Assembly: GCA_963770765.1 (NCBI GenBank) | Contig: CAVYQS010000005.1 | Coordinates: 205,242 to 269,241 of the forward strand | Direction of reading: 5' to 3' | From: an uncultured Actinomycetes bacterium | Lineage (GTDB): Bacteria > Actinomycetota > Coriobacteriia > Anaerosomatales > PHET01 | DNA: 64,000 bases | In this document: piece by piece, positions 2,458 to 38,694 of the stretch | Layout of the letters: the number at the start of each line of letters is the position of its first letter | Position numbering within the stretch: the first letter of the stretch is position 1 | Notes under the pieces: model-generated | Seen by the model: only the letters and a program-made list of their open reading frames with translations | The model's database searches: none | Told to the model about the DNA's origin: nothing | Translations under genes and position numbers: made by a program

Positions 2458-3450
2458 CTACCGCAGCAGGCTCGTCAGGTAGCTTGCGGCCTTCTGCCCG
2501 CTGTCTGGCGCGATGGTCACGGCGATGCCTTCTCGGCCAGGCTCGCTCAAGTACTTCAGCGCGCCGGCGGCGATCGCCGCGGCCGACTGGCCCACCATCA
2601 GCGACTCTTCGCAGTAGAGCCGCCGAGCGGCCGAGTCGGTCATCTCGTCGTCGACCCACACGAGCTCGTCGATCACCGACATGTCGAGGTTGGCCGGCAC
2701 TGCGGTCTCCTCCATGTTCTTGAGGCCGGAGATGTGGTGCCCGCGAACCGGCTCGATGCCGATGATCTTGATCTCGGGGTTCTGTTCCTTGAGGTAGCGC
2801 CCTGTGCCCACGATCGTGCCGCAGGTCCCGAGTCCCGCGAAGAAGTGCGTGATGCGGCCCTCGGTCTGGCGCCAGATCTCGGGGCCGGTGGACTCGTAGT
2901 GCGCGCGGGCGTTGTCCGCGTTGTCGTATTGGTTGGGCATCACGTACTCGTCGGGATGCGTGGCCATGAGCTGCTCGGCGAGCTTGAATGCGACGTCCAT
3001 GGGGTGAAGGCCGGAGGTGTCGTCCGGCGAGGTGAGCCGAAGGTCGGCACCGAAGACGCGCAACAGCGCGGTCTTCTCGGGGGAAAGCACGTGAGGGGCG
3101 GTCGCCACCATGTGGATGCCCAGGAGCTGGGAGATCGCCGCCATCGCGATGCCGGTGTTGCCCGAGGTGGCCTCGATGACGGTCTTGCCATCGAGCTCGC
3201 CGCGCTCGATGAGTCCGTTGAGCAGCCACTTGGCGGTGCGGTCCTTGATGGAGCCGAACGGGTTGACCCATTCGCACTTCACGTAGAGCGCGACGTCGGG
3301 ATTGTCGAGGACACGGTTGACCCGCACGATCGGCGTGGGGTGGTCCACGTCGCCGCACATGTCGAGCAGGTTGTCGTAGCGCGCGAGGCGCGAGTCGTCA
3401 CCCAAGCCCTCGCGCGGGAGGCTGGTGGGGGAGTCGGGGGTCTGCGGCAT
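2458..3450 (-). CDS. Cysteine synthase family (PLP-dependent, fold type II) enzyme
   Basis: NPFGSIKDR PLP-lysine motif and ATSGNTGIAMA loop. Start taken at MPQTPDS, preceded by GAGGA, rather than the upstream ATG of the track ORF. Confidence 0.8.
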   Translation of the reverse strand: MPQTPDSPTSLPREGLGDDSRLARYDNLLDMCGDVDHPTPIVRVNRVLDNPDVALYVKCEWVNPFGSIKDRTAKWLLNGLIERGELDGKTVIEATSGNTGIAMAAISQLLGIHMVATAPHVLSPEKTALLRVFGADLRLTSPDDTSGLHPMDVAFKLAEQLMATHPDEYVMPNQYDNADNARAHYESTGPEIWRQTEGRITHFFAGLGTCGTIVGTGRYLKEQNPEIKIIGIEPVRGHHISGLKNMEETAVPANLDMSVIDELVWVDDEMTDSAARRLYCEESLMVGQSAAAIAAGALKYLSEPGREGIAVTIAPDSGQKAASYLTSLLR

Positions 3451-3588
3451 GCTGGGTCCTCGCAGCTCGGTGATGGTCGCGCGCTTGTGCACAGCGTGCT
3501 ACCAGCATACGCGCATGCGCGAGAGCGCAGCCCGGTGGAGTTCGGGTACCAAGTAGATGCAACGTGGCCCCGTGGAAGGAACGCTCCC

Positions 3589-5955: not shown

Positions 5956-6996
5956 ATGACAAATTCTTCTGCGGGCCGCGCGCCTAGAGGGCGGCCCTCG
6001 CGCGCCGCGGTATACCAGCGGTTCGCCACCGCCATCGATGAGCTTGGACGATACGGCGGCCTTCCTACCCCGGTCGAGGCCAAGCAGCTCTGGGATGACG
6101 TGTGGCACCTTGAGGCCCACCACTCCACGGCGCTCGAGGGCAACACACTCGTGCTGCGCGAAGTCGAGCAACTCCTCGAACAGGGCAGGGCGGTGGGATC
6201 GAAGGAGCTCAAGGACTACATGGAGGTCCTCGGCTACTCGGAGGCCGCGCGTTGGGTCTACGAGCAGGGAGTGGCGCCAGTTGAGTTCCGGCACGATGGC
6301 CTGATCAGCGTCACGGAGGTCCGCCACATCCATGAGCTGGCGATGGCCAAGGTGTGGGAGGTCGCGCCGCACCCGGACGCCTACCCAGACGAGGCCCCGG
6401 GAAGCTTCCGCCAACACGACATCCACCCGTTCCCGGGCGGGATGACCCCGCCGACCCACCCGCTCGTTTCGGCAGGTGTCGCTTCGTGGGTCGAAGAGGT
6501 GAATCGGTTCGGCGGGGCGCTCGCCGACGGAACGCTCGGTCTGTCCGATGTTCCGGAAGCGCTCGCGCGCATCCACGCCGACTTCGAGCGACTACACCCG
6601 TTCATCGATGGCAACGGGCGCACGGGTCGACTCCTGCTCAACCTCATCTTGACTCGTCTGGGTTGGCCCCCAATCGTCATCTTCAAGGAGCAGCGAGGGC
6701 GCTATCTCAAGGCGCTCGACCGTGCCGACCACGACGATCTCGGCCCACTTGCGGAGATCATTGTCCGCGCGGTCGTCGACAACCTCCACCGCCTCATCCC
6801 CAACATCGCCGGGCCCGCGAAGTACGTGCCGCTCGAGGCGCTTGCCGACGAGGAATTCAGCCTCGCGGCGCTCAAGCAAGCTGCTGGCCGTGGGCGGCTC
6901 GAAGCAATCATCGGCACCGACGGACGGTATCGGTCGAGTCGCGCTGCGGTGGAGGCATACAAGGCATCGAAGTACGCGCGAGGCGACAAGGCCTGA
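5956..6996 (+). CDS. Fic family protein (class II, with N-terminal inhibitory helix)
   Basis: Fic motif HPFIDGNGRTGR. Upstream STALEGN matches the (S/T)xxxE(G/N) auto-inhibitory motif. Confidence 0.9.
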   Translation: MTNSSAGRAPRGRPSRAAVYQRFATAIDELGRYGGLPTPVEAKQLWDDVWHLEAHHSTALEGNTLVLREVEQLLEQGRAVGSKELKDYMEVLGYSEAARWVYEQGVAPVEFRHDGLISVTEVRHIHELAMAKVWEVAPHPDAYPDEAPGSFRQHDIHPFPGGMTPPTHPLVSAGVASWVEEVNRFGGALADGTLGLSDVPEALARIHADFERLHPFIDGNGRTGRLLLNLILTRLGWPPIVIFKEQRGRYLKALDRADHDDLGPLAEIIVRAVVDNLHRLIPNIAGPAKYVPLEALADEEFSLAALKQAAGRGRLEAIIGTDGRYRSSRAAVEAYKASKYARGDKA

Positions 6997-7030
6997 GGGT
7001 GTCGGCGACCGACCGTAAGACGACCACGCC

Positions 7031-7059
7031 TTGACCACCATCGCCGCAGGGCTTACTCT
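7031..7059 (+). promoter_or_regulatory. Candidate sigma70-type promoter of the ArsR operon
   Basis: TTGACC (7031-7036), 17-nt spacer, TACTCT (7054-7059). Confidence 0.35.
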
Positions 7060-7068
7060 TGCTAGATA

Positions 7069-7086
7069 GTTCGAAAAGCATCGAAC
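7069..7086. promoter_or_regulatory. Candidate ArsR/SmtB operator (copy 1)
   Basis: GTTCGA-AAAGCA-TCGAAC, a perfect 6-6-6 inverted repeat just downstream of the -10. The left context GATAGTTCGAAA is repeated at 7459-7470. Confidence 0.4.
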
Positions 7087-7099
7087 AAGGAGTCCCACG

Positions 7100-7417
7100 G
7101 TGACAACTGCCACGCAGGCAACCTCGACGAATCTGGATGCCGTCTTCAAGGCACTGGCTTCCTCACATCGCCGCGAGATCCTCGCGATGCTGAGCGCGGC
7201 CGACAGCGAGGGGAACAAGACGTGCTGTGCCGCCGAGGAGGTCTGCGCCTGCAAGATCTCCGAACGCCTGGGGTTGTCGCCGTCCACCACGTCCCATCAC
7301 ATGTCGGTCCTGCGCGACGCGGGCTTGGTCACGGGTCGCAATGAGGGCACGTGGACGTATTACACGCTACGCCGCGAGGTGCTTGCTGCGGTGGCTGAAG
7401 CGTTGACCAACTTCTAG
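7100..7417 (+). CDS. ArsR/SmtB family metalloregulator
   Basis: wHTH SERLGLSPSTTSHHMSVLRDAGLV. Cys-rich sensing region KTCCAAEEVCACKI resembles the ELCVCDL As(III) site. Confidence 0.9.
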   Translation: MTTATQATSTNLDAVFKALASSHRREILAMLSAADSEGNKTCCAAEEVCACKISERLGLSPSTTSHHMSVLRDAGLVTGRNEGTWTYYTLRREVLAAVAEALTNF

Positions 7418-7425
7418 AACCTCAA

Positions 7426-7448
7426 GGAGGCCGGGATACCCGGCCTCC
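7426..7448 (+). terminator. Stem-loop between arsR and the downstream genes (attenuator or terminator candidate)
   Basis: GGAGGCCGGG-ATA-CCCGGCCTCC, a perfect 10-bp stem. There is no clear U-tract. Confidence 0.4.
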
Positions 7449-7462
7449 CTCTCGGCCTGATA

Positions 7463-7480
7463 GTTCGAAAGACTTCGACG
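7463..7480. promoter_or_regulatory. Candidate ArsR/SmtB operator (copy 2)
   Basis: GTTCGA-AAGACT-TCGACG, 5 of 6 bp inverted repeat. Same GATAGTTCGAAA left arm as copy 1. Lies 17 nt upstream of the Trx_3 gene start. Confidence 0.35.
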
Positions 7481-7496
7481 TAGGAGGAATGACGGC

Positions 7497-7733
7497 ATGG
7501 AGATCAAGGTGCTCGGACCAGGATGCGCGAACTGCAACAAGCTTGAGGAGGCGACCCGCAAGGCGGTCGAGAAGGCCGGCCTCGACGCGACCATCGAGAA
7601 GGTGAGCGACCTGCAGGAGATCATGAGCTACGGCGTCATGTCGACGCCCGCGCTCGTCGTCGACGGCGAGCTCCGCCTTGCCGGTCGTGTGCCTTCCGTC
7701 GACGATCTCGTCGCACTGCTTCAGAGGGGCTAG
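7497..7733 (+). CDS. Thioredoxin_3 / MTH895-type redox-active disulfide protein
   Basis: 78 aa: MEIKVLGPGCANCNKLEE (CxxC), ..YGVMSTPALVVDGEL..GRVPSVDDL. Confidence 0.85.
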   Translation: MEIKVLGPGCANCNKLEEATRKAVEKAGLDATIEKVSDLQEIMSYGVMSTPALVVDGELRLAGRVPSVDDLVALLQRG

Positions 7734-7739
7734 CGAGTC

Positions 7740-8759
7740 GTGTTCGAGGCCATCGGCAATGTCCTTGGGTGGATGAACGAGAACTTCCTCAAGATGACGT
7801 GGCTCAACGAACTCGTTGGCCGCTTCATCGAGGACGTCTTGGGGTTGTCGCTCACCAGCAAGCTCGGCGCGAGCCTGCAGTTCTTCGTCTACGACACGGT
7901 CAAGATCTTCGTGCTGCTCTCGGCGTTGATCTTCGCTATCTCGTACGTGCAGAGCTACTTTCCGCCCGAGCGCACCAAGGCGATCCTCGGCAGGTTCAAC
8001 GGAATCACCGGCATGGTCCTTGGCGCTCTGCTTGGCACGATCACGCCGTTTTGCTCGTGCTCGTCGATCCCGCTGTTCATCGGCTTCACGTCTGCGGGCT
8101 TGCCCCTGGGCGTGACGTTCGCGTTCCTGATCTCGTCGCCGCTCGTCGACCTCGCGTCGGTGATGCTTCTTGCGAGCATCTTCAACTGGACCACGGCGAT
8201 CGCCTACGTGATCGTGGGCCTCGTGCTCGCGGTCATCGGCGGCTTCATCATCAGCCGCCTCAAGCTCGAGCGCTACGTCGAGCCTTTCGTCTATGGGAGT
8301 CACCTCGCCGATGCGGACCTGCCGGCACTGACGCGAGCCGACCGCTTGGCCTACGCTCGCGAGCAGGTCGTCGATGTCGTCAAGAAGGTGTGGCTCTACG
8401 TCCTCATCGGCGTGGGTATCGGGGCGATCATCCACGGATGGATACCGGGCACGTTCATCTCGGCGGTGCTTGGCTACGAGAACCCGTTCGCCGTCATCAT
8501 CGCCACGGCGATCGGCGTCCCCATGTATGCGGACATCTTCGGCACCCTTCCGATAGCTGAGGCGCTCGTGGGCAAGGGCGTCGGCTTGGGAACGGTGCTC
8601 TCATTCATGATGGCGGTCACGGCGCTGTCCCTGCCGTCGATGATCATGCTCAAGAAGGTGGTCAAGACCCCGCTGCTCGCCACCTTCTTCGGCATCGTCG
8701 TGACCGGGATCATCATCATCGGCTACACCTTCAACGCCTTCGGGCGGCTGTTCGTCTAG
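7740..8759 (+). CDS. ArsP_1/DUF318 family permease
   Basis: Polytopic membrane protein with the family-typical TPFCSCSSIPLF cysteine motif, in the usual ArsR-Trx_3-permease arrangement. Confidence 0.85.
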   Translation: MFEAIGNVLGWMNENFLKMTWLNELVGRFIEDVLGLSLTSKLGASLQFFVYDTVKIFVLLSALIFAISYVQSYFPPERTKAILGRFNGITGMVLGALLGTITPFCSCSSIPLFIGFTSAGLPLGVTFAFLISSPLVDLASVMLLASIFNWTTAIAYVIVGLVLAVIGGFIISRLKLERYVEPFVYGSHLADADLPALTRADRLAYAREQVVDVVKKVWLYVLIGVGIGAIIHGWIPGTFISAVLGYENPFAVIIATAIGVPMYADIFGTLPIAEALVGKGVGLGTVLSFMMAVTALSLPSMIMLKKVVKTPLLATFFGIVVTGIIIIGYTFNAFGRLFV

Positions 8760-8791
8760 ACGAGTGATCGGCTTCGGATCAGAAGAGGTGC

Positions 8792-9232
8792 GTGCTCATG
8801 GCAGTGAAACGGATCGTGCTTCCGGTGGATGGCTCGGCGACCGCAGAGGCCGCCGCTCGCTTCGCCGAGGACATCGCTCGCTCCGAGGGTGAGATGGTGA
8901 TCGTGTTGGGCGTGGTCGTGCCGCTTGCACCAGCGACCGATGAGGCCGTGTCGGTGACAGCCGCGATCCACCGGTTCATGACCGAGCAGGTTGCCGCCGA
9001 GGCGGCGCGAATCCGGGCAGTCGGCATACCCGCCGAGGAGCTCGTGGTGGAGGCGGGCTCTCCCCACGAAGGCATCCTGAAGGTGGCGGTGGAGCGCGAC
9101 GCCGACGTGATCGTCATGGGCACCCACGGCCGGACCGGACTCGTGCGTGCTGTCATCGGCTCGGTCGCCGACAAGGTCGTACGGCATTCGCAGGTGCCGG
9201 TGGTGCTCGTCCCCCTGAAGAGTGAGGACTGA
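8792..9232 (+). CDS. Universal stress protein (UspA family)
   Basis: VKRIVLPVDGS..., VMGTHGRTGLVRAVIGSVADKVVRHSQVPVVLVP. Confidence 0.85.
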   Translation: MLMAVKRIVLPVDGSATAEAAARFAEDIARSEGEMVIVLGVVVPLAPATDEAVSVTAAIHRFMTEQVAAEAARIRAVGIPAEELVVEAGSPHEGILKVAVERDADVIVMGTHGRTGLVRAVIGSVADKVVRHSQVPVVLVPLKSED

Positions 9233-9233
9233 C

Positions 9234-9749
9234 ATGCGCGAGCAAGAAGGCCCGCACGAACCTGTGCAGCCGGAGCCCACAGCGGAATCGGGCGTATCGA
9301 CCCGCATGGTCATCGTGTTTGTCGTGATCGCACTCTTCGCCGGGATCCTCGCTGCGAAGTACCTGTCGCCGTCCCAGCCGGGCGGAAGCGACGGTCTGGC
9401 CGCCCGGGAGTCGCTGACATCGGTGCGCAACGATGCGGCTGCCGACTACGAGGCGGCTGTGAAGTCGGGCAAACCCATCTACGTCCTGTTCCACTCGCTG
9501 AGTTGACAGTCGTGCCTTGAGATCTCGGCGGTCGCCGACACAGTCATCCCCGACTACCAGGACAAAGTCGCATTCGTGAACGCCATCACCGACGACCCCT
9601 CGGCGCAGCAGCTGTCGTCGAAGTTCTCGTTCCAGTACATCCCCTCGTCGTTCTTCGTCATGCCCGACGGGACGGTCTCGGACTCGTATACCGGACCGCT
9701 GTCTGAGAGCGAGATGCGCGCCCGGCTCGACGCGTTGGTCGCCCAGTGA
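9234..9749 (+). CDS. Membrane-anchored thioredoxin-like protein with an in-frame TGA (9504-9506) at the first CxxC position. Candidate selenoprotein (U-Q-S-C).
   Basis: TM anchor MVIVFVVIALFAGILAAKYL. Trx fold reads KPIYVLFHSLS-[TGA]-QSCLEISAVADTVIPDYQDKVAFVNAITDD..FQYIPSSFFVMPDGTV. The frame and coding character continue for 80 codons after the TGA. The final stop overlaps the ccdA GTG (GTGA). Confidence 0.6.
9507..9555 (+). promoter_or_regulatory. Candidate bacterial SECIS element
   Basis: Upper hairpin UCGGC-GGUC-GCCGA (9525-9538). The GGUC loop starts 23 nt after the UGA. A possible lower stem pairs AGUCG (9508-9512) with CGACU (9551-9555). Confidence 0.45.
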
Positions 9750-10450
9750 ACGTTGAGTCGCTCGCGCAGAATCTCACCGCCGGTGCGGCATGGGGTCCGG
9801 TCGCATTCGGGATAGCGTTCCTCGGCGGACTCGTCGCCGGGCTCGGGCCGTGTGTCTTGCCCATGATCCCGGCGGTGTTCGGCTACGTGACCGGCCAGGT
9901 GGGCGAGTCGAAGGGGACGTCACCTCTGCTTCGGGGGCTGGCGCTCTCGGCCGTGTTCGTCTTGGGGATGAGCCTCGTCTTCGCGGCGATCGGTGCGGTG
10001 GCAGGCCTGCTCGGACGCGCACTGATCGTCGACACGTGGGCGTACTACGCCGTGGCGGCCATCTGCGTGGTGATCGGCCTGCAGATGCTCGGGGTCATCA
10101 ACCTGCCCGTGGACCGGCTGAACCGGTGGCTTCCGGTGAAACGGCCCGAGCGTCGTGGTGTCGTGGGGGCGTTGCTGTTCGGCATGCTCTTCGGCCTGGT
10201 GGCGACGCCGTGCTCGACGCCCATCCTCGCTGCGATCGCTGCCATCGCTGCGACGACCGGCAACGCCGCGAAGGGCGCTGCACTGCTGTTCGTCTACGGC
10301 ATCGGCAAAGGTACGCCGCTGCTGCTTCTGGGCATCGCATCCGGCTCGCTCGTCTTCATGCGCTCGGTTTCGAGGATCACGCCGGCGCTCACGAAGATCG
10401 GCGGCGTTGGGATCATCGCTGCGGGTGCGTATCTCGTGTGGATCGCCTGA
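9746..10450 (+). CDS. ccdA: Cytochrome c biogenesis protein CcdA (DsbD-family thiol-disulfide transporter)
   Basis: Conserved GLGPCVLPMIP and VATPCSTPILAA cysteine motifs. Six-TM pattern. Confidence 0.9.
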   Translation: MNVESLAQNLTAGAAWGPVAFGIAFLGGLVAGLGPCVLPMIPAVFGYVTGQVGESKGTSPLLRGLALSAVFVLGMSLVFAAIGAVAGLLGRALIVDTWAYYAVAAICVVIGLQMLGVINLPVDRLNRWLPVKRPERRGVVGALLFGMLFGLVATPCSTPILAAIAAIAATTGNAAKGAALLFVYGIGKGTPLLLLGIASGSLVFMRSVSRITPALTKIGGVGIIAAGAYLVWIA

Positions 10451-10466
10451 CAGAAAGGTGGCACAG

Positions 10467-10847
10467 GTGGACGAAGTCATCATCAAGGTCATCGACCAAA
10501 GCTGCGCTTGAGGCGGCGGAACCGACTGCTGCGACAGCCTCGAGTCCGACCTCGCCGGATATCCGGCGGGTGCGACTTGAACGCTTCCGCTGCAATGGCG
10601 CCTGCAGGTCGTGCAGGCACGGGTTCAAGAATCGACCGGCGTGTCGGTCACAGTGGAGGAGGCAGACCTGTTCGCGCTGACGGGAGCAGACAGGGAAGCA
10701 GCCCTCTCGGGCCTGACCTCCGGTCTCGAGCTCCCGTTCGTGATCGTTGAGGGCGTCCTCGCGTGCTCCGGCGACTTCGATCTGGAGCGCATCGAGCAGG
10801 CCGTGGGGGCGCGTGGTGCCGGCTCAGACACGGCGCCGCTTGGGTAG
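10467..10847 (+). CDS. ArsD/Trx_3-like thioredoxin-fold protein with two in-frame TGA codons (10509-10511 and 10578-10580). Either a candidate selenoprotein or a decayed gene.
   Basis: GTG start with AAAGGTGG as RBS. Reads MDEVIIKVIDQSCA-[TGA]-GGGTDCCDSLESDLAGYPAGAT-[TGA]-TLPLQWRLQ..GVSVTVEE..LELPFVIVEGVLACSGDFDLERIEQAVG. The layout resembles ArsD: beta1, a Cys cluster, then ..LPxxxxDG..G. There is no alternative start codon between the two TGAs. Confidence 0.4.
10598..10620 (+). promoter_or_regulatory. Candidate SECIS hairpin after the second TGA
   Basis: GCGCCUGCA-GGUCG-UGCAGGCAC, a 7-bp stem. The loop starts 26 nt after the UGA. Its apex closely resembles the fdhF SECIS apex UUGCA-GGUC-UGCAC. 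Confidence 0.4.
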
Positions 10848-10874
10848 AAGCTCCACGAGACCAAGGGAGGCGTC

Positions 10875-11060
10875 ATGAGCAAGGGCGACACCGGTGCTGC
10901 GGCAGGGGCGGGAGCCGTGTACGGACTCGGCATCTTCGGAGCGATCATCTACTACATCCAGACGGCTTCGAGCTTCTGGGACGGGCTGATCGGCTTCATC
11001 AAGGCGTTCTTCTGGCCGGGATTCATGGTCTACGAGCTGATGCAGTTCCTCAGGATGTAG
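10875..11060 (+). CDS. Small (61 aa) two-TM membrane protein
   Basis: AGGGAGG RBS. Sequence GAVYGLGIFGAIIYYIQTASSFWDGLIGFIKAFFWPGFMVYELMQF. Confidence 0.55.
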   Translation: MSKGDTGAAAGAGAVYGLGIFGAIIYYIQTASSFWDGLIGFIKAFFWPGFMVYELMQFLRM

Positions 11061-11142
11061 GGGAGGAGCACCGGCGCTGCTATCCTTCTGGCCGACCATC
11101 TCGAGTCGATCCCCGCTCTGAGGGATTCCAGAGGGAGGACGC

Positions 11143-12059
11143 ATGACCGCACGCATCGCGCTCGTCACCACCGACGACCCCGTGCTCCTCGAGCACGAGT
11201 TCGACCTCGAGCCGCTGCTCGCCGAGTTCGCCCGCAGAGGCATCCCCGCCGAGGCGCCCGTCTGGCACGACCCGAGCGTCGACTGGAGCGCCTACGACCT
11301 CGTCGTGATGCGCAGCCCGTGGGACTACTCGGCGCGGACCGTCGAGTTCCTCGCGTGGCTCGACTCGCTTCCCGCGGGCGGCGTGCTCAACCCGCCCGCG
11401 CTCATCCGCTGGAACTTCGACAAGCGCTACCTGCTCGACCTCGCAGGCGCACGGCGTCACCATCGTCCCCACGATCGTCGCCTCCACGCTCGCGGAGGTG
11501 CGTGCCGCCGCCGAGAAGATCGGCGGGCGCATCGTCATCAAACCGAACATCGGCGCTGGTTCGTGGGGTGCGCACATAACGTCAGCAGGCGACCCCAAGC
11601 TCGACCGAGTACGCGGCCGAGGTGCTCGACTCGGCAAGCTCGTGCTCGTCGAGCCGGAGATCCCGGAGATCACGGCCGGAGGCGAGCACGGCCTGCTGTT
11701 CTTCGACGGCGAGTACTCCCACGCGATCACGAAGGGTCCCATCCTCGCCGATGACGGCGGATACCTGGGCGGCGAGTACAGCGAGGACATCACGCCCGTG
11801 ATCGCCGAGTGAAGCCGAGATCGAGCTTGCGTGGCGCTGCAGCCGGGCTATCGCCCAGATCGCCGAGGAGCGCGGGTTCGCCAGCGACGCCGCGACCACG
11901 CCGCTCTACGCGCGCTACGACATCGTGACCGGTGCGAACGGCCCGATGGTGATCGAGGCCGAGCTGTTCGAGCCGAGCTACTTCGTCGAGACCGCGCCAG
12001 GGAGTGTGCGGCGGGTGGTGGATGCGATGGTGGGGCGACTGGAGCTAGAACAGGTCTGA
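11143..12059 (+). pseudogene. ATP-grasp domain protein with at least 4 frameshifts
   Basis: The coding sense jumps frame near 11447-11451 (..LDLAG|HGVTIVPTIVASTLAEV..), ~11604, ~11633 (..KLD|EYAAEVLDS|GKLVLVEPEIPEI..) and 11810 (..PVIAE|EAEIELAWRCSRAIAQIAEERGF..ELEQV*). Confidence 0.65.
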
Positions 12060-12999: not shown

Positions 13000-14362
13000 A
13001 TGATCCCTCGCTACTCCCGTCCCGAGATGGCCCGCATCTGGGACCTCGAGAACAAGTTCGCGATCTGGCAGGAGATCGAGGTGCTCGCGTGCGAAGCGCA
13101 GGCCGAGCTGGGGCAGGCCGGCATCACCTCCGAGGAGGCTGCCCACATCCGCGCGCACGCCGCGTTCGAAGTCGAGCGCATCGACGAGCTCGAAGCCGTC
13201 ACCAACCACGACGTCATCGCGTTCCTCACCAACATGGCCGAGCACATCGACGCCAATCTCGGCGAGGACGACCCCAAGCCCAGCCGCTGGGTCCACTACG
13301 GCATGACCAGCTCGGACCTAGGCGACACGGCGCTGTGCTACCAGATGATGCAAGCGACCGACATCCTCATCGCCGACGTCCGCCGGCTCGGCGAGATCTG
13401 CAAGCGCCGAGCGCTCGAGGAGCGCGACACCCTGTGCGTGGGCCGCACGCACGGCATCCACGCCGAGCCCATGACCATGGGCATGAAGTTCGGCCGCTGG
13501 GCGTTCGCGTGGAAGCGCGCGCTCGACCGGCTCGAGCGCACCCGCGAGAACGTCGCGGTGGGCGCGATCTCCGGCGCCGTGGGCAGCTACTCCAACATCG
13601 ACCCGTTCGTCGAGCAGTACGTGTGCGAGAAGCTCGGTCTGCCAGCCGGAGCCGATGTCGACCCAGGTCATCCCGCGCGACCGTCACGCGCAGTTCCTCG
13701 CCGTGCTCGCGACCGTCGCCGCCACCGCCGAGGAGATCGCGACCGAGGTCCGCGCGCTCCAGAAGTCCGACACCCTCGAAGCCGAGGAGCCGTTCGCCAA
13801 GGGCCAGAAGGGCTCATCGGCGATGCCGCACAAGCGCAACCCCATCACGGCCGAGCGCGTCTGCGGCCTCGCGCGCGTGATCAAGGCCAACGCTCAGGTG
13901 GGCTTCGACAACGTGGCGCTGTGGCACGAGCGCGACATCAGCCACTCGTCGGCCGAGCGCGTCGTGCTCGCCGACTCGACGATCGGGCTCGACTACATCC
14001 TGGGCAAGCTCGAGTGGATCCTCGACGGGATGGTGCTCTATCCCCAGCGCATGATGGCGAACCTCGAATCCACGCGCGGACTCATCTACTCGAGCCGCGT
14101 GCTGCTCGCGCTCGTCGACTCGGGCATGACGCGCGAGGACGCGTACGCCGTGGTGCAGGGTGCGGCGATGAAGGTCTGGGCCGACATCCAGGATGCGGTG
14201 CCGGGTCCGGGATTCCGAGACTACCTCGAGTCGAGCGCAGCGGTGCACGGGGAGTTCCCGCTCGACTTCGGGCAGCTCGAAGAGTGCTTCGACCCGCGCA
14301 GCTTCCTCACGCGTACCGGCGTGCTGTTCGATCGGGTCGCAGGCGCTGGAGTTCTAGGTTGA
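13000..14362 (+). pseudogene. purB: Adenylosuccinate lyase, interrupted by a 1-nt frameshift near 13640-13646
   Basis: N-terminal part MIPRYSRPEMARIWDLENKF..GRTHGIHAEPMTMG..EKLGLPA in frame 1. C-terminal part (E)PMSTQVIPRDRHAQF..GSSAMPHKRNPI.. in frame 2. An extra G in GCCGGAG explains the shift. Confidence 0.8.
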
Positions 14363-37100: not shown

Positions 37101-37261
37101 GGCCGCCGGAGGTACGGAGGGCGCACGACCGTCTGCCGTGCGCACCTTCGCGAGTGACGAAAGTCACAGTCGCAGGTCAAGCCGGCTACGCGAGCGGCCG
37201 ATAACAAGGAGCGTGGAGAACGAAGGCCCGAGGGCCTTCCCGACCACTCACTGACAACCCG

Positions 37262-37340
37262 ACAAAGGCAAACCCGTCGCGAGGCGGGGGCGCAAAACCA
37301 AGGGTCTCTCGCGAGAGACAGCCTAGTTGCCGAAGGTGAT
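37262..37340 (+). promoter_or_regulatory. Candidate c-di-GMP-I (GEMM-I) riboswitch
   Basis: ACAAAGGCAAACC-CGUC-GCGA-GGCG-GGGGCGCAAAACC-AAGG-GUCUCUC-GCGA-GAGAGAC-AGCCUAGUUGCCGAAGG. Compare the Vc2 core GGCAAACC..GAAA..GGGACGCAAAGCC...AGC.GGGUUACCGA. The GAAGGUGA SD follows immediately. Confidence 0.6.
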
Positions 37341-37344
37341 CGTC

Positions 37345-38694
37345 TTGAAGAAGCTCCCCGCTGTCTTGTGCGCGGCCGTGCTCGTCTCGGCCGTCCTCGC
37401 CTCTCCGGCCCCCGCGTTCGCCGCCTCCAAGCTGCGGGTCAGCACCACGGTCAAGCCCGTGGTGAAGTCGGGCGCCACCGGAAGAGTAGTGGTCAAGTCG
37501 AAGTCGACGCGTCCGGCGAAGTTCAAGGTCACCGTCTACAAGAACGGCAAGCGCATTCGGACGATCAAGCCCAAGGGCACGTGGTATCGCAAGAGCACTA
37601 CGTGGAACCTTCGCGACTCGAATGGCAGGAAGGCTGCGGCGGGTGTCTACACGGTCAAGGTCACCGCGACGCGGAACGGCCGGTCCGTGAGCAAGGTCAG
37701 GCGGATCCGCGTGGTGAAGCCCGCCCCGAAGCCGGTTCCCGCGACCCCGCCCACGGTCTCTCCCGAGCCGGAGCCTACCTACCCCAGCCCTGACCCCTCC
37801 GCACCCGGAGCCCCGGTGACACCGGTGGTCAATCCGGCCGCAAGCTCCCCGCGCTGGGTCGGATTCTACGTCCCCGGCGTTCCCGGCAGCATGAGCCCCC
37901 TCGATGCCGTGGAGAACGCGACCGGAGCCGATTCGGCCGTCGTCAACTTCTTCATCAGCGACAGCGAGAGGTTCCCGGCATCCCGTTGCGAGAACGTGGC
38001 CGAAGCGGGTGCGGTGCCGCTCGTCACCCTTGAGTTCTGGTCGATCCAGAACTCAGGCGGCCTCGCCGCGATCAACAACGGCAGCAAGGACGCCTACCTG
38101 CGCACGTTCGCGGATGCAGCGAAGGCGTATGGGGGCGAGGTCTGGCTTCGCCCGTTCCATGAGATGAACGGCAACTGGTACCCGTGGTGCGGGACCGTGG
38201 GCAACAATACCCCCGCACAGCTCGTCACGGCATGGCGTCACGTGTACGACGTCTTCCAGTCCCGCGGTGCCACCAACGTCAAGTTCGTCTGGTGTGCGAA
38301 CGTCGACAGCGTCCCCAACACGACCGCGAACCAGATCGCGAAGTTCTGGCCGGGCGACGCCTACGTGGACTCGGTCGCCCTCGACGGCTACAACTGGGGC
38401 GTCACGTCGGCGTCGTGGTCCTCGTGGCGCAGCTTCGGCAGTATCTACGGACCCGCGTACAACACGGTCACGGCCCTGACCTCGAAGCCGCTGTTCATCG
38501 CCGAGATAGGGTGCTCGGAAGTGGGCGGCAGCAAGGCGGCATGGATCACCGACATGTTCAAGTCGATCACGAGCACCTACACGCGCGTGCGAGGCGTGGT
38601 CTGGTTCGAAGTCGACAAGGAGCAGGACTGGCGTGTGACCGCCTCGAGTGCGAGTACCGCCGCATACCGAAACGCAGTGACGGCCGGCTACTGA
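37345..38694 (+). CDS. Secreted GH26-like glycoside hydrolase with N-terminal Ig-like (FlgD-Ig-like) domain and Pro-rich linker
   Basis: Preferred TTG start gives MKKLPAVLCAAVLVSAVLASPAPAFA. Also VYTVKVTATRNG and FHEMNGNWYPWCG. The track start at 37327 lies inside the riboswitch. Confidence 0.75.
   Translation: MKKLPAVLCAAVLVSAVLASPAPAFAASKLRVSTTVKPVVKSGATGRVVVKSKSTRPAKFKVTVYKNGKRIRTIKPKGTWYRKSTTWNLRDSNGRKAAAGVYTVKVTATRNGRSVSKVRRIRVVKPAPKPVPATPPTVSPEPEPTYPSPDPSAPGAPVTPVVNPAASSPRWVGFYVPGVPGSMSPLDAVENATGADSAVVNFFISDSERFPASRCENVAEAGAVPLVTLEFWSIQNSGGLAAINNGSKDAYLRTFADAAKAYGGEVWLRPFHEMNGNWYPWCGTVGNNTPAQLVTAWRHVYDVFQSRGATNVKFVWCANVDSVPNTTANQIAKFWPGDAYVDSVALDGYNWGVTSASWSSWRSFGSIYGPAYNTVTALTSKPLFIAEIGCSEVGGSKAAWITDMFKSITSTYTRVRGVVWFEVDKEQDWRVTASSASTAAYRNAVTAGY

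Follow-up and report, generated by a model that had tools for sequence, protein, structure and literature searches.

The window analysed here is a stretch of 64,000 nucleotides from an uncultured Actinomycetes bacterium (GTDB lineage Coriobacteriia; Anaerosomatales; PHET01), covering positions 205,242 to 269,241 of contig CAVYQS010000005.1 in assembly GCA_963770765.1. On its plus strand, positions 9234-9749 are occupied by a predicted gene for a membrane-anchored, thioredoxin-like selenoprotein. An in-frame UGA codon at 9504-9506, very probably read as selenocysteine (Sec), takes the place of the first cysteine of the redox motif. The gene very probably encodes a genuine Sec-containing thioredoxin that is partnered by CcdA. 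This assignment draws on the open frame, on a match to the thioredoxin family PF00085 that extends across the TGA, on the alignment to CxPC- and WCGPC-type proteins, and on the occurrence of TGA at the same position in 15 other loci and of a Cys codon in 28. Comparison of the homologous sequences shows a hairpin-dependent recoding of UGA 9504, which is predicted to yield a complete protein of thioredoxin fold whose attacking position is occupied by the recoded residue. The inserted residue would be Sec, delivered by SelB bound to the apex of the hairpin.

The reading frame and its thioredoxin domain

The frame opens with the ATG at 9234, which is preceded within a few bases by the sequence GAGGA and lies just past the stop codon of a universal-stress-protein gene. 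It comprises 171 codons up to the TGA at 9747-9749, and its sole internal TGA is codon 91 (9504-9506). The translation of the read-through frame is ...KPIYVLFHSLS-(TGA)-QSCLEISAVADTVIPDYQDK...FQYIPSSFF..., or, over a longer stretch around the TGA, ...GKPIYVLFHSLS-(TGA)-QSCLEISAVADTVIPDYQDKVAFVNAITDD...FQYIPSSFF.... The peptide spanning the recoded position would accordingly read PIYVLFHSLS-U-QSCLEISAVADTVIPDYQDK.

When U is replaced by C, the protein matches PF00085 with 30.6 bits (gathering score 23.5) over residues 67-166, that is, on both sides of the TGA. Its Pfam matches comprise Thioredoxin and Thioredoxin_7, but not Redoxin or AhpC-TSA. Towards the N-terminus, residues 26-44 form a hydrophobic segment with a mean Kyte-Doolittle value of 2.57 (19-residue window), and the membrane anchor is placed at approximately residues 25-44. 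In a profile search of the Protein Data Bank (PDB) with the family alignment, the family motif FHSLT-C-xPC is aligned with FWAEW-C-GPC, and YIPT with the cis-proline motif GIPT of thioredoxins. In the window protein it is YIPS that falls on the cis-proline GIPT, while the redox motif U91-Q-S-C94 falls on C-G-P-C. Since the TGA coincides with the first Cys of WCGPC in these alignments, it replaces the attacking Cys. A preliminary description of the locus, made from the sequence alone, had proposed that the frame continues beyond 9504-9506 as a thioredoxin fold with a cis-proline loop, and that the UGA stands at the first Cys of WCxxC, giving U-Q-S-C. The frame, the PF00085 match and the PDB profile bear out the former proposal, and the alignments with homologues and PDB entries the latter.

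A reassigned genetic code does not account for the internal codon, because TGA is the most frequent ordinary stop in the window, terminating 21 of the 41 open reading frames (ORFs) of at least 150 amino acids. A further possibility is that the TGA at 9504 is itself a true stop, so that the region would encode a membrane peptide of 90 residues and, from a start of its own such as GTG 9576, a C-terminal fragment. Gene callers yield exactly such a pair, and the public annotation lists two unnamed fragments here, P0172 (90 amino acids) and P0173 (57 amino acids). This explanation is nevertheless highly improbable. The residues encoded between the TGA and 9576 (QSCLEISAVADTVIPDYQDKVAF) are conserved at the protein level and include the second Cys and helix 1, and a thioredoxin fold split at this point would be left without an active site. 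Moreover, the GTG at 9576 is not a conserved feature as a start codon; the residue that it encodes is the V of an FVNA motif in all homologues. Homologues that end at the TGA and are followed by an independent gene, which the preliminary description had considered as contrary evidence, do not occur among the homologues. Recognition of the Sec codon thus restores a complete redox enzyme from two public fragments that are meaningless on their own.

Conservation of the TGA codon among homologues

A search of protein collections gave 133 homologues of about 150-195 residues, nearly all from metagenome-assembled genomes (MAGs) of uncultured Coriobacteriia or Actinomycetota. In an alignment of 34 homologues the motif FHSL[TS]-C-x-P-C-[VI]EIS is evident, and the window TGA lies on its first Cys. 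A set of 37 related loci was obtained by scanning one genome per GTDB species. The critical codon in this set is TGA in five loci (L001-L005), which stem from different species and show 58-80% identity to the window protein, and TGC or TGT in 28. Metagenomes were searched in addition with a degenerate DNA pattern for F-H-S-L-[ST]-TGA-x-x-C-x-[EQ]-I-S, in which the two middle residues and everything further downstream were left unconstrained. Eleven contigs matched the pattern; ten represent full-length homologues with the in-frame TGA (L038 and L040-L048), and the eleventh is a chance match. Together with the window this brings the TGA forms to 16, at roughly 40-80% protein identity, and none of the searches put a constraint on the downstream RNA. 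The question whether homologues carry Cys or TGA in this column, raised in the preliminary description, thus has a clear answer: TGC or TGT in 28 and TGA in 15, which stem from different species and samples and all have an open frame.

None of the 16 TGA forms has a second stop or a frameshift in the domain, and in each the frame reaches the usual C-terminus. The ratio of non-synonymous to synonymous changes (pN/pS) was calculated over the 74 codons 3' of the TGA; in the 119 pairs with appreciable synonymous divergence its median is 0.33 and its highest value 0.55. This indicates purifying selection, and hence that the part beyond the TGA is translated in this frame.

These data also bear on the view that the TGA is a nonsense mutation in a Cys codon, or an assembly or sequencing error, which would make the gene a pseudogene or a misread one. 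TGA is one substitution away from TGC or TGT, and frameshifts do occur elsewhere, in the window (in purB near 13650 and in the ORFs at 11143-11812) as well as in related long-read MAGs. However, the assembly errors seen elsewhere are indels, not substitutions, and the same TGA recurs in 15 independent assemblies at 40-80% identity, with purifying selection downstream. The conservation of TGA, frame and motif across 15 other assemblies excludes a nonsense mutation or a base-calling error, and it contradicts the Cys-to-stop mutation that the preliminary description had put forward as its alternative. The probability left to an explanation of this kind is minute.

The TGA and Cys forms differ consistently in the residue that precedes the second Cys. 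The motif is U-[Q/R/A]-S-C in all 16 TGA forms, whereas each of the 28 Cys forms has C-x-P-C. With 16 Sec forms and many Cys orthologues, this clean switch constitutes a natural experiment on the retuning of the residue that stands before the resolving Cys. In a neighbour-joining tree the TGA forms make up one clade. Within this otherwise all-TGA clade are nested three loci with the motif C-Q-P-C (L009, L015 and L034), which may represent Sec-to-Cys reversion with restoration of the Pro, or a tree artefact.

The immediate codon context is conserved as well. The base 5' of the TGA is always T in the 16 sequences, contributed by the Ser codon AGT or the Thr codon ACT, both unusual for a genome of 67% G+C, and the base 3' of it is C in 15 of the 16, giving a conserved U-UGA-C context.

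A conserved hairpin downstream of the TGA codon

A hairpin resembling a Sec insertion sequence (SECIS) is located on the plus strand at 9523-9540, as judged from an alignment of the 16 TGA forms (alignment A3) and the associated pair counts. Its core, UCGGC-GGUC-GCCGA at 9525-9538, consists of five pairs formed by 9525-9529 with 9534-9538 and encloses the loop GGUC (9530-9533). Two outer pairs, 9523/9540 and 9524/9539, are optional, and the latter is a C-C mismatch in the window. The preliminary description had placed the hairpin 23 nt downstream of the UGA. The hairpin is present, but it is the loop that lies at this distance, whereas the start of the stem follows the UGA by 18 nt.

All 15 distinct sequences of the alignment form the five core pairs. 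In L040, L041, L045 and L047 one core pair has changed from G-C to A-U on both sides, through the synonymous replacements TCG to TCA and GCC to GCT (three sequences in the pair counts), and in three sequences one core pair has changed from G-C to G-U. At the sixth pair, four sequences have A-U, another four C-G, and the remaining seven a mismatch. The changes in the hairpin are all synonymous or conservative with respect to the protein. Loop positions two and three are G-U in all 16 sequences, and the complete loop is GGUC in 11 of them and AGUU in the other five. Five measures of the whole structure are all at or above the values of slid-register controls, and the shuffle control is exceeded for the fraction of cells paired and for covariation. 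As a background value, 10 of the 1591 TGA trinucleotides in the window (0.6%) precede a 5-bp hairpin with an NGUN loop at a comparable distance. The apical hairpin, which the preliminary description had singled out as the element, thus stands: it co-varies, it includes a compensatory change, and it is intact in 16 of 16 Sec forms, as opposed to 5 of 28 Cys forms.

Two other structures did not hold up among the homologues. The lower stem suggested in the preliminary description, 9508-9512 with 9551-9555, does pair in the window, but over the 15 distinct homologues the proportion of paired cells is only 69%, and at three of its five positions pairing is lost in 5-8 of the 15. A longer hairpin with a GAUC loop, proposed by RNAalifold from six sequences, showed no covariation beyond shuffles on 16 sequences.

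The Cys forms encode the peptide EISAVAD or EISAVVD in this region and form on average four of the five stem pairs, but the hairpin is intact in only one of the six with exactly EISAVAD. The peptide therefore predisposes the RNA to pairing, as judged from the sequences compared, and the TGA forms have fixed the pairing. The near-hairpin of the Cys forms looks like a proto-SECIS that may have eased the switch from Cys to Sec, and it would offer a tractable case of the origin of a SECIS element inside a coding sequence. In the Cys-type loci L006-L035 the loop G-U is already there at the position equivalent to 9525-9538, supplied by a Val codon.

Proposed decoding and function

The comparative evidence suggests that UGA 9504-9506 would be decoded by Sec-tRNA(Sec) brought by SelB, with the hairpin at 9525-9538 recruiting SelB through a loop that exposes the conserved G-U. 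The product, of 171 residues, would be held in the membrane by a single N-terminal anchor and carry a classical thioredoxin domain in which Sec is the attacking residue (U-Q-S-C). By analogy with CcdA/DsbD systems, and in view of the fixed overlap of the two genes, this domain may face the outside of the cytoplasmic membrane. Gene order and knowledge of the family suggest that CcdA, which would be translationally coupled to the thioredoxin, re-reduces the selenenyl-sulfide with electrons from cytoplasmic thioredoxin. The reduced selenothioredoxin could then reduce an extracytoplasmic substrate.

Several points weigh against this reading. tblastn searches with Escherichia coli SelA, SelB and SelD (E <= 1e-3) were without a hit both in the 64-kb window and in the flanks retrieved for the related loci, and ARAGORN predicted neither a tRNA in the window nor a tRNA-Sec in any of 47 loci. 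The absence of sel genes says little, because the search covered 64 kb of the genome only. The 57-nt region has a single-sequence fold energy no better than that of shuffles (z = -0.75), and no SECIS family in Rfam was matched at either gathering or permissive thresholds. The case for a SECIS element accordingly rests on the comparative data. The aligned sequences are related, so that the shuffle statistics overstate their independence, and the compensatory change to A-U, shared by L041 and the close trio L040/L045/L047, may go back to two events. The conserved peptide S-A-V-A-D dictates part of the hairpin, as the four-out-of-five pairing of the Cys forms illustrates. Indel errors are present elsewhere in the assembly, as in purB. 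Finally, the outward orientation, the reduction by CcdA and the substrate are all inferred.

In the course of the tRNA search, ARAGORN also reported a 98-nt 'tRNA-Ala(ggc)' at 4698-4795 of L004. It lies in coding-looking sequence, has no Rfam support and probably represents a spurious prediction.

The identity of the inserted residue deserves separate consideration, as hairpin-aided read-through might insert Cys or another standard amino acid instead of Sec, for example through a tRNA-Sec-like tRNA-Cys with a UCA anticodon or another suppressor tRNA. The conserved TGA, the open frame and the co-varying hairpin demonstrate recoding, not the identity of the residue, and the lack of any sel gene or tRNA-Sec in the window and related flanks would agree with such a route. 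Against this, the switch from C-x-P-C to U-x-S-C suggests a residue chemically unlike Cys, and the Cys column, the spacing of the hairpin and the loop G-U all fit an ordinary bacterial Sec system. Reading of TGA as Cys would also make it hard to explain why the first TGA of the neighbouring gene 'UU', described below, is without any Cys form in 22 loci. Insertion of a standard amino acid is therefore considered unlikely, though less so than either a true stop or a sequence error. That the lineage decodes UGA is evident from the conserved TGA codons of UU.

Comparison with known selenoproteins and CcdA partners

Thioredoxin-fold UxxC proteins are among the best-known kinds of bacterial selenoproteins. 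A 2026 review lists thioredoxin (PF00085), 'thiol:disulfide interchange protein' (PF13098) and thiol-disulfide isomerase-like selenoproteins, and the thioredoxin selenoprotein of Treponema denticola has been shown experimentally (PMC13188914). The window protein shares with these proteins the thioredoxin fold, Sec in place of the first Cys of CxxC, the existence of Cys homologues and a putative SECIS element in the coding region just after the UGA. Unlike them, its family has an N-terminal anchor, is fixed beside ccdA in a cluster headed by an ArsR-type gene, and has the motif U-x-S-C, without Pro. None of the NCBIfam models SaoT (NF040730), HUIPC (NF047660) and PDO_seleno_TRX (TIGR02187) matched the read-through protein at E <= 0.01. 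Since it meets PF00085 and no curated selenoprotein-specific NCBIfam model, the thioredoxin is best described as a new example of a known selenoprotein kind, its newness as a family being judged against Pfam and NCBIfam models; homology-based catalogues such as BSepDB (PMC13326102) may already include it. As a kind it is unsurprising; its use lies in the correction of the annotation and in the natural comparison of Cys and Sec forms.

The protein also resembles ResA, StoA and other CcdA clients of the CcmG/TlpA type, being a membrane-anchored thioredoxin-like protein encoded beside ccdA. The presumed electron path in CcdA systems leads from cytoplasmic thioredoxin via CcdA to an outward-facing domain, and to our knowledge the characterised CcdA-dependent extracytoplasmic oxidoreductases all use Cys. 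In contrast to the ResA/TlpA type, the window domain is a classical PF00085 thioredoxin, not of the TlpA/redoxin type. The NCBIfam ResA model (NF002854) gives 16.7 bits at a cut-off of 170, and the protein is not a member of that family.

The SECIS elements of E. coli fdhF and Moorella fdhA contain an apical, G+C-rich hairpin that binds SelB, with G-U in the loop and a bulged U in the stem. Like them, the element described here is a short, G+C-rich hairpin at a fixed distance from the UGA with G-U in its loop; the window and 10 of the 15 homologues share GGUC as the loop sequence. It differs from the fdhF element in its 5-bp stem without a bulged U, which begins 18 nt after the UGA, and in the AGUU loop of five homologues. 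The match of the GGUC loop to the fdhF apex, as claimed in the preliminary description, is thus correct as regards the loop G-U, but does not extend to the bulged U or to the homologues with AGUU.

Genetic organization of the cluster

The thioredoxin gene is part of a gene cluster on the plus strand, which is headed by an ArsR/SmtB regulator (7100-7417) and continues with a small thioredoxin of the MTH895/ArsE type (7497-7733), an ArsP_1 permease (7740-8759) and a universal stress protein (Usp, 8792-9232), all assigned by family matches. Directly 3' of the thioredoxin lies ccdA (9746-10450; DsbD_TM family, Pfam match with 1.6e-31). As had been noted in the preliminary description, the extended thioredoxin ORF ends in a GTGA overlap with the ccdA start, the stop codon being at 9747-9749 and the GTG at 9746. 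The position of ccdA directly 3' of the thioredoxin gene is kept in essentially all complete related loci, and the order ArsR/SmtB, MTH895/ArsE-type thioredoxin, ArsP_1, (Usp), thioredoxin, CcdA and UU is conserved in most of the 37 loci. The genes flanking the conserved cluster are unrelated. Genes for cytochrome c maturation were not observed among those of the cluster, and a scan of 6900-11400 for promoters and terminators gave nothing informative.

In its design the cluster recalls the multi-selenoprotein neighbourhoods described by Haft, SAO (bioRxiv 10.1101/2022.07.06.499078) and Tso (PMC13188914). Common elements are an ArsR/SmtB-type regulator or an ArsP-like permease, thioredoxin-like proteins, a DsbD/CcdA-type protein and small proteins rich in Sec or Cys. 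In contrast to SAO and Tso themselves, the proteins of the cluster score below the curated cut-offs (SaoE 88 versus 325 bits, TsoB 70 versus 805, TsoR 25.8 versus 115); the resemblance is one of design, not of membership. This design suggests chemistry with thiophilic metals. It might be speculated that the cluster handles thiophilic metals or metalloids, or thiol stress in the envelope, and recoding at this locus would then show that uncultured lineages depend on selenium for a module of envelope redox or detoxification.

Several related loci from 'MFD' MAGs (L001 at 2859-3561, and L009 and L034 throughout) contain frameshifted ccdA, arsR, arsP and small-thioredoxin genes in tblastn alignments. 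These frameshifts are consistent with long-read indel errors that leave the TGA codon unaffected.

A downstream gene with two in-frame TGA codons

Directly after ccdA, a candidate double selenoprotein gene, here named UU, extends on the plus strand from the GTG at 10467 to a TGA ending at 10847, with in-frame TGA codons at 10509-10511 and 10578-10580. Homologues are found 3' of ccdA in 22 loci, including loci with a Cys-type thioredoxin. The first TGA is present in all 22, within the motif C-[G/A]-U-G, while the second position is TGA in 18 loci and Cys in four. A SECIS-like hairpin belonging to the second TGA was identified from pairing and covariation at 10600-10618 (plus strand), with a 7-bp stem and the loop GGUCG. 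It starts 19 nt after the TGA, 90% of its cells are paired, three pairs show compensatory changes, and the loop G-U is invariant. Because this hairpin shares the design of that in the thioredoxin gene, the clade evidently reads UGA in a hairpin-dependent manner in at least two genes.

No family match was obtained in Pfam or NCBIfam for any of the 20 UU members searched, a profile search against PDB sequences gave no match, and comparisons of the UU profile with ArsD and with the Trx_3 protein of the window were negative. All 51 relatives in the databases are C-terminal fragments of 66-155 residues, 'hypothetical' where they are named at all. UU may therefore represent a selenoprotein family absent from Pfam and NCBIfam, and it is a more novel item of the locus than the thioredoxin. 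In a structure model of a 90-residue C-terminal fragment, with a predicted local distance difference test (pLDDT) score of 82.5, the elements follow one another as helix, coil, helix, strand, strand, helix, and an invariant Pro precedes the first strand. Weak fold matches were obtained with YuzD-like 1xg8 (E 0.42, template modelling (TM) score 0.55) and with glutaredoxins (TM score ~0.35). A thioredoxin-like scaffold would agree with this model, and the second U/C would then stand at the start of helix 1. The conserved residues C13, U15, U/C38 and C100 could form a metal or redox site.

Some UU homologues, among P0127, P0136, P0159, P0133 and P0165, have Cys-rich tails such as GGCGCGGGDCC, GGCGCASGGCC and GGCC. 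These recall the N-terminal segment C-G-U-G-G...DCC and the tails of metal chaperones.

Taken jointly, the two genes allow a broader interpretation, which is advanced tentatively and with somewhat less than even confidence. In uncultured Coriobacteriia-like Actinomycetota, the selenothioredoxin may be one arm of an undescribed module with three selenocysteines in an ArsR-headed cluster. UU would then represent a new family of selenoproteins in which C-x-U is obligatory, a second site (U/C) lies where a helix starts and the scaffold is possibly thioredoxin-like; it would have stayed hidden from databases because gene callers keep only its C-terminal two-thirds. The thioredoxin, in turn, would be a selenoprotein born from a Cys protein via a proto-SECIS, with a coupled retuning of Pro to Ser.

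Other features of the window

A scan of the window for further read-through candidates by codon-position G+C revealed no convincing other case. A small hydrophobic ORF of 61 amino acids follows UU at 10875-11060 (plus strand); it has no family match and no tblastn match in related loci, and it may not be a real gene. Further downstream on the same strand, the ORFs 11143-11754 and 11498-11812 look like one gene in two frames. The adenylosuccinate-lyase-like gene purB (13000-14362, plus strand), of which just the N-terminal part matches Pfam Lyase_1, shows a similar break near 13650, and its sequence resumes in a different frame at about 13655. Both splits are either assembly indel errors or pseudogenes.

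Outside this region, a c-di-GMP-I-GGC riboswitch aptamer is located at 37258-37335 on the plus strand (RF03167, 74.3 bits at a gathering score of 59). It lies immediately 5' of the ORF 37327-38694 and overlaps its start, and this ORF opens with a signal-peptide-like sequence.

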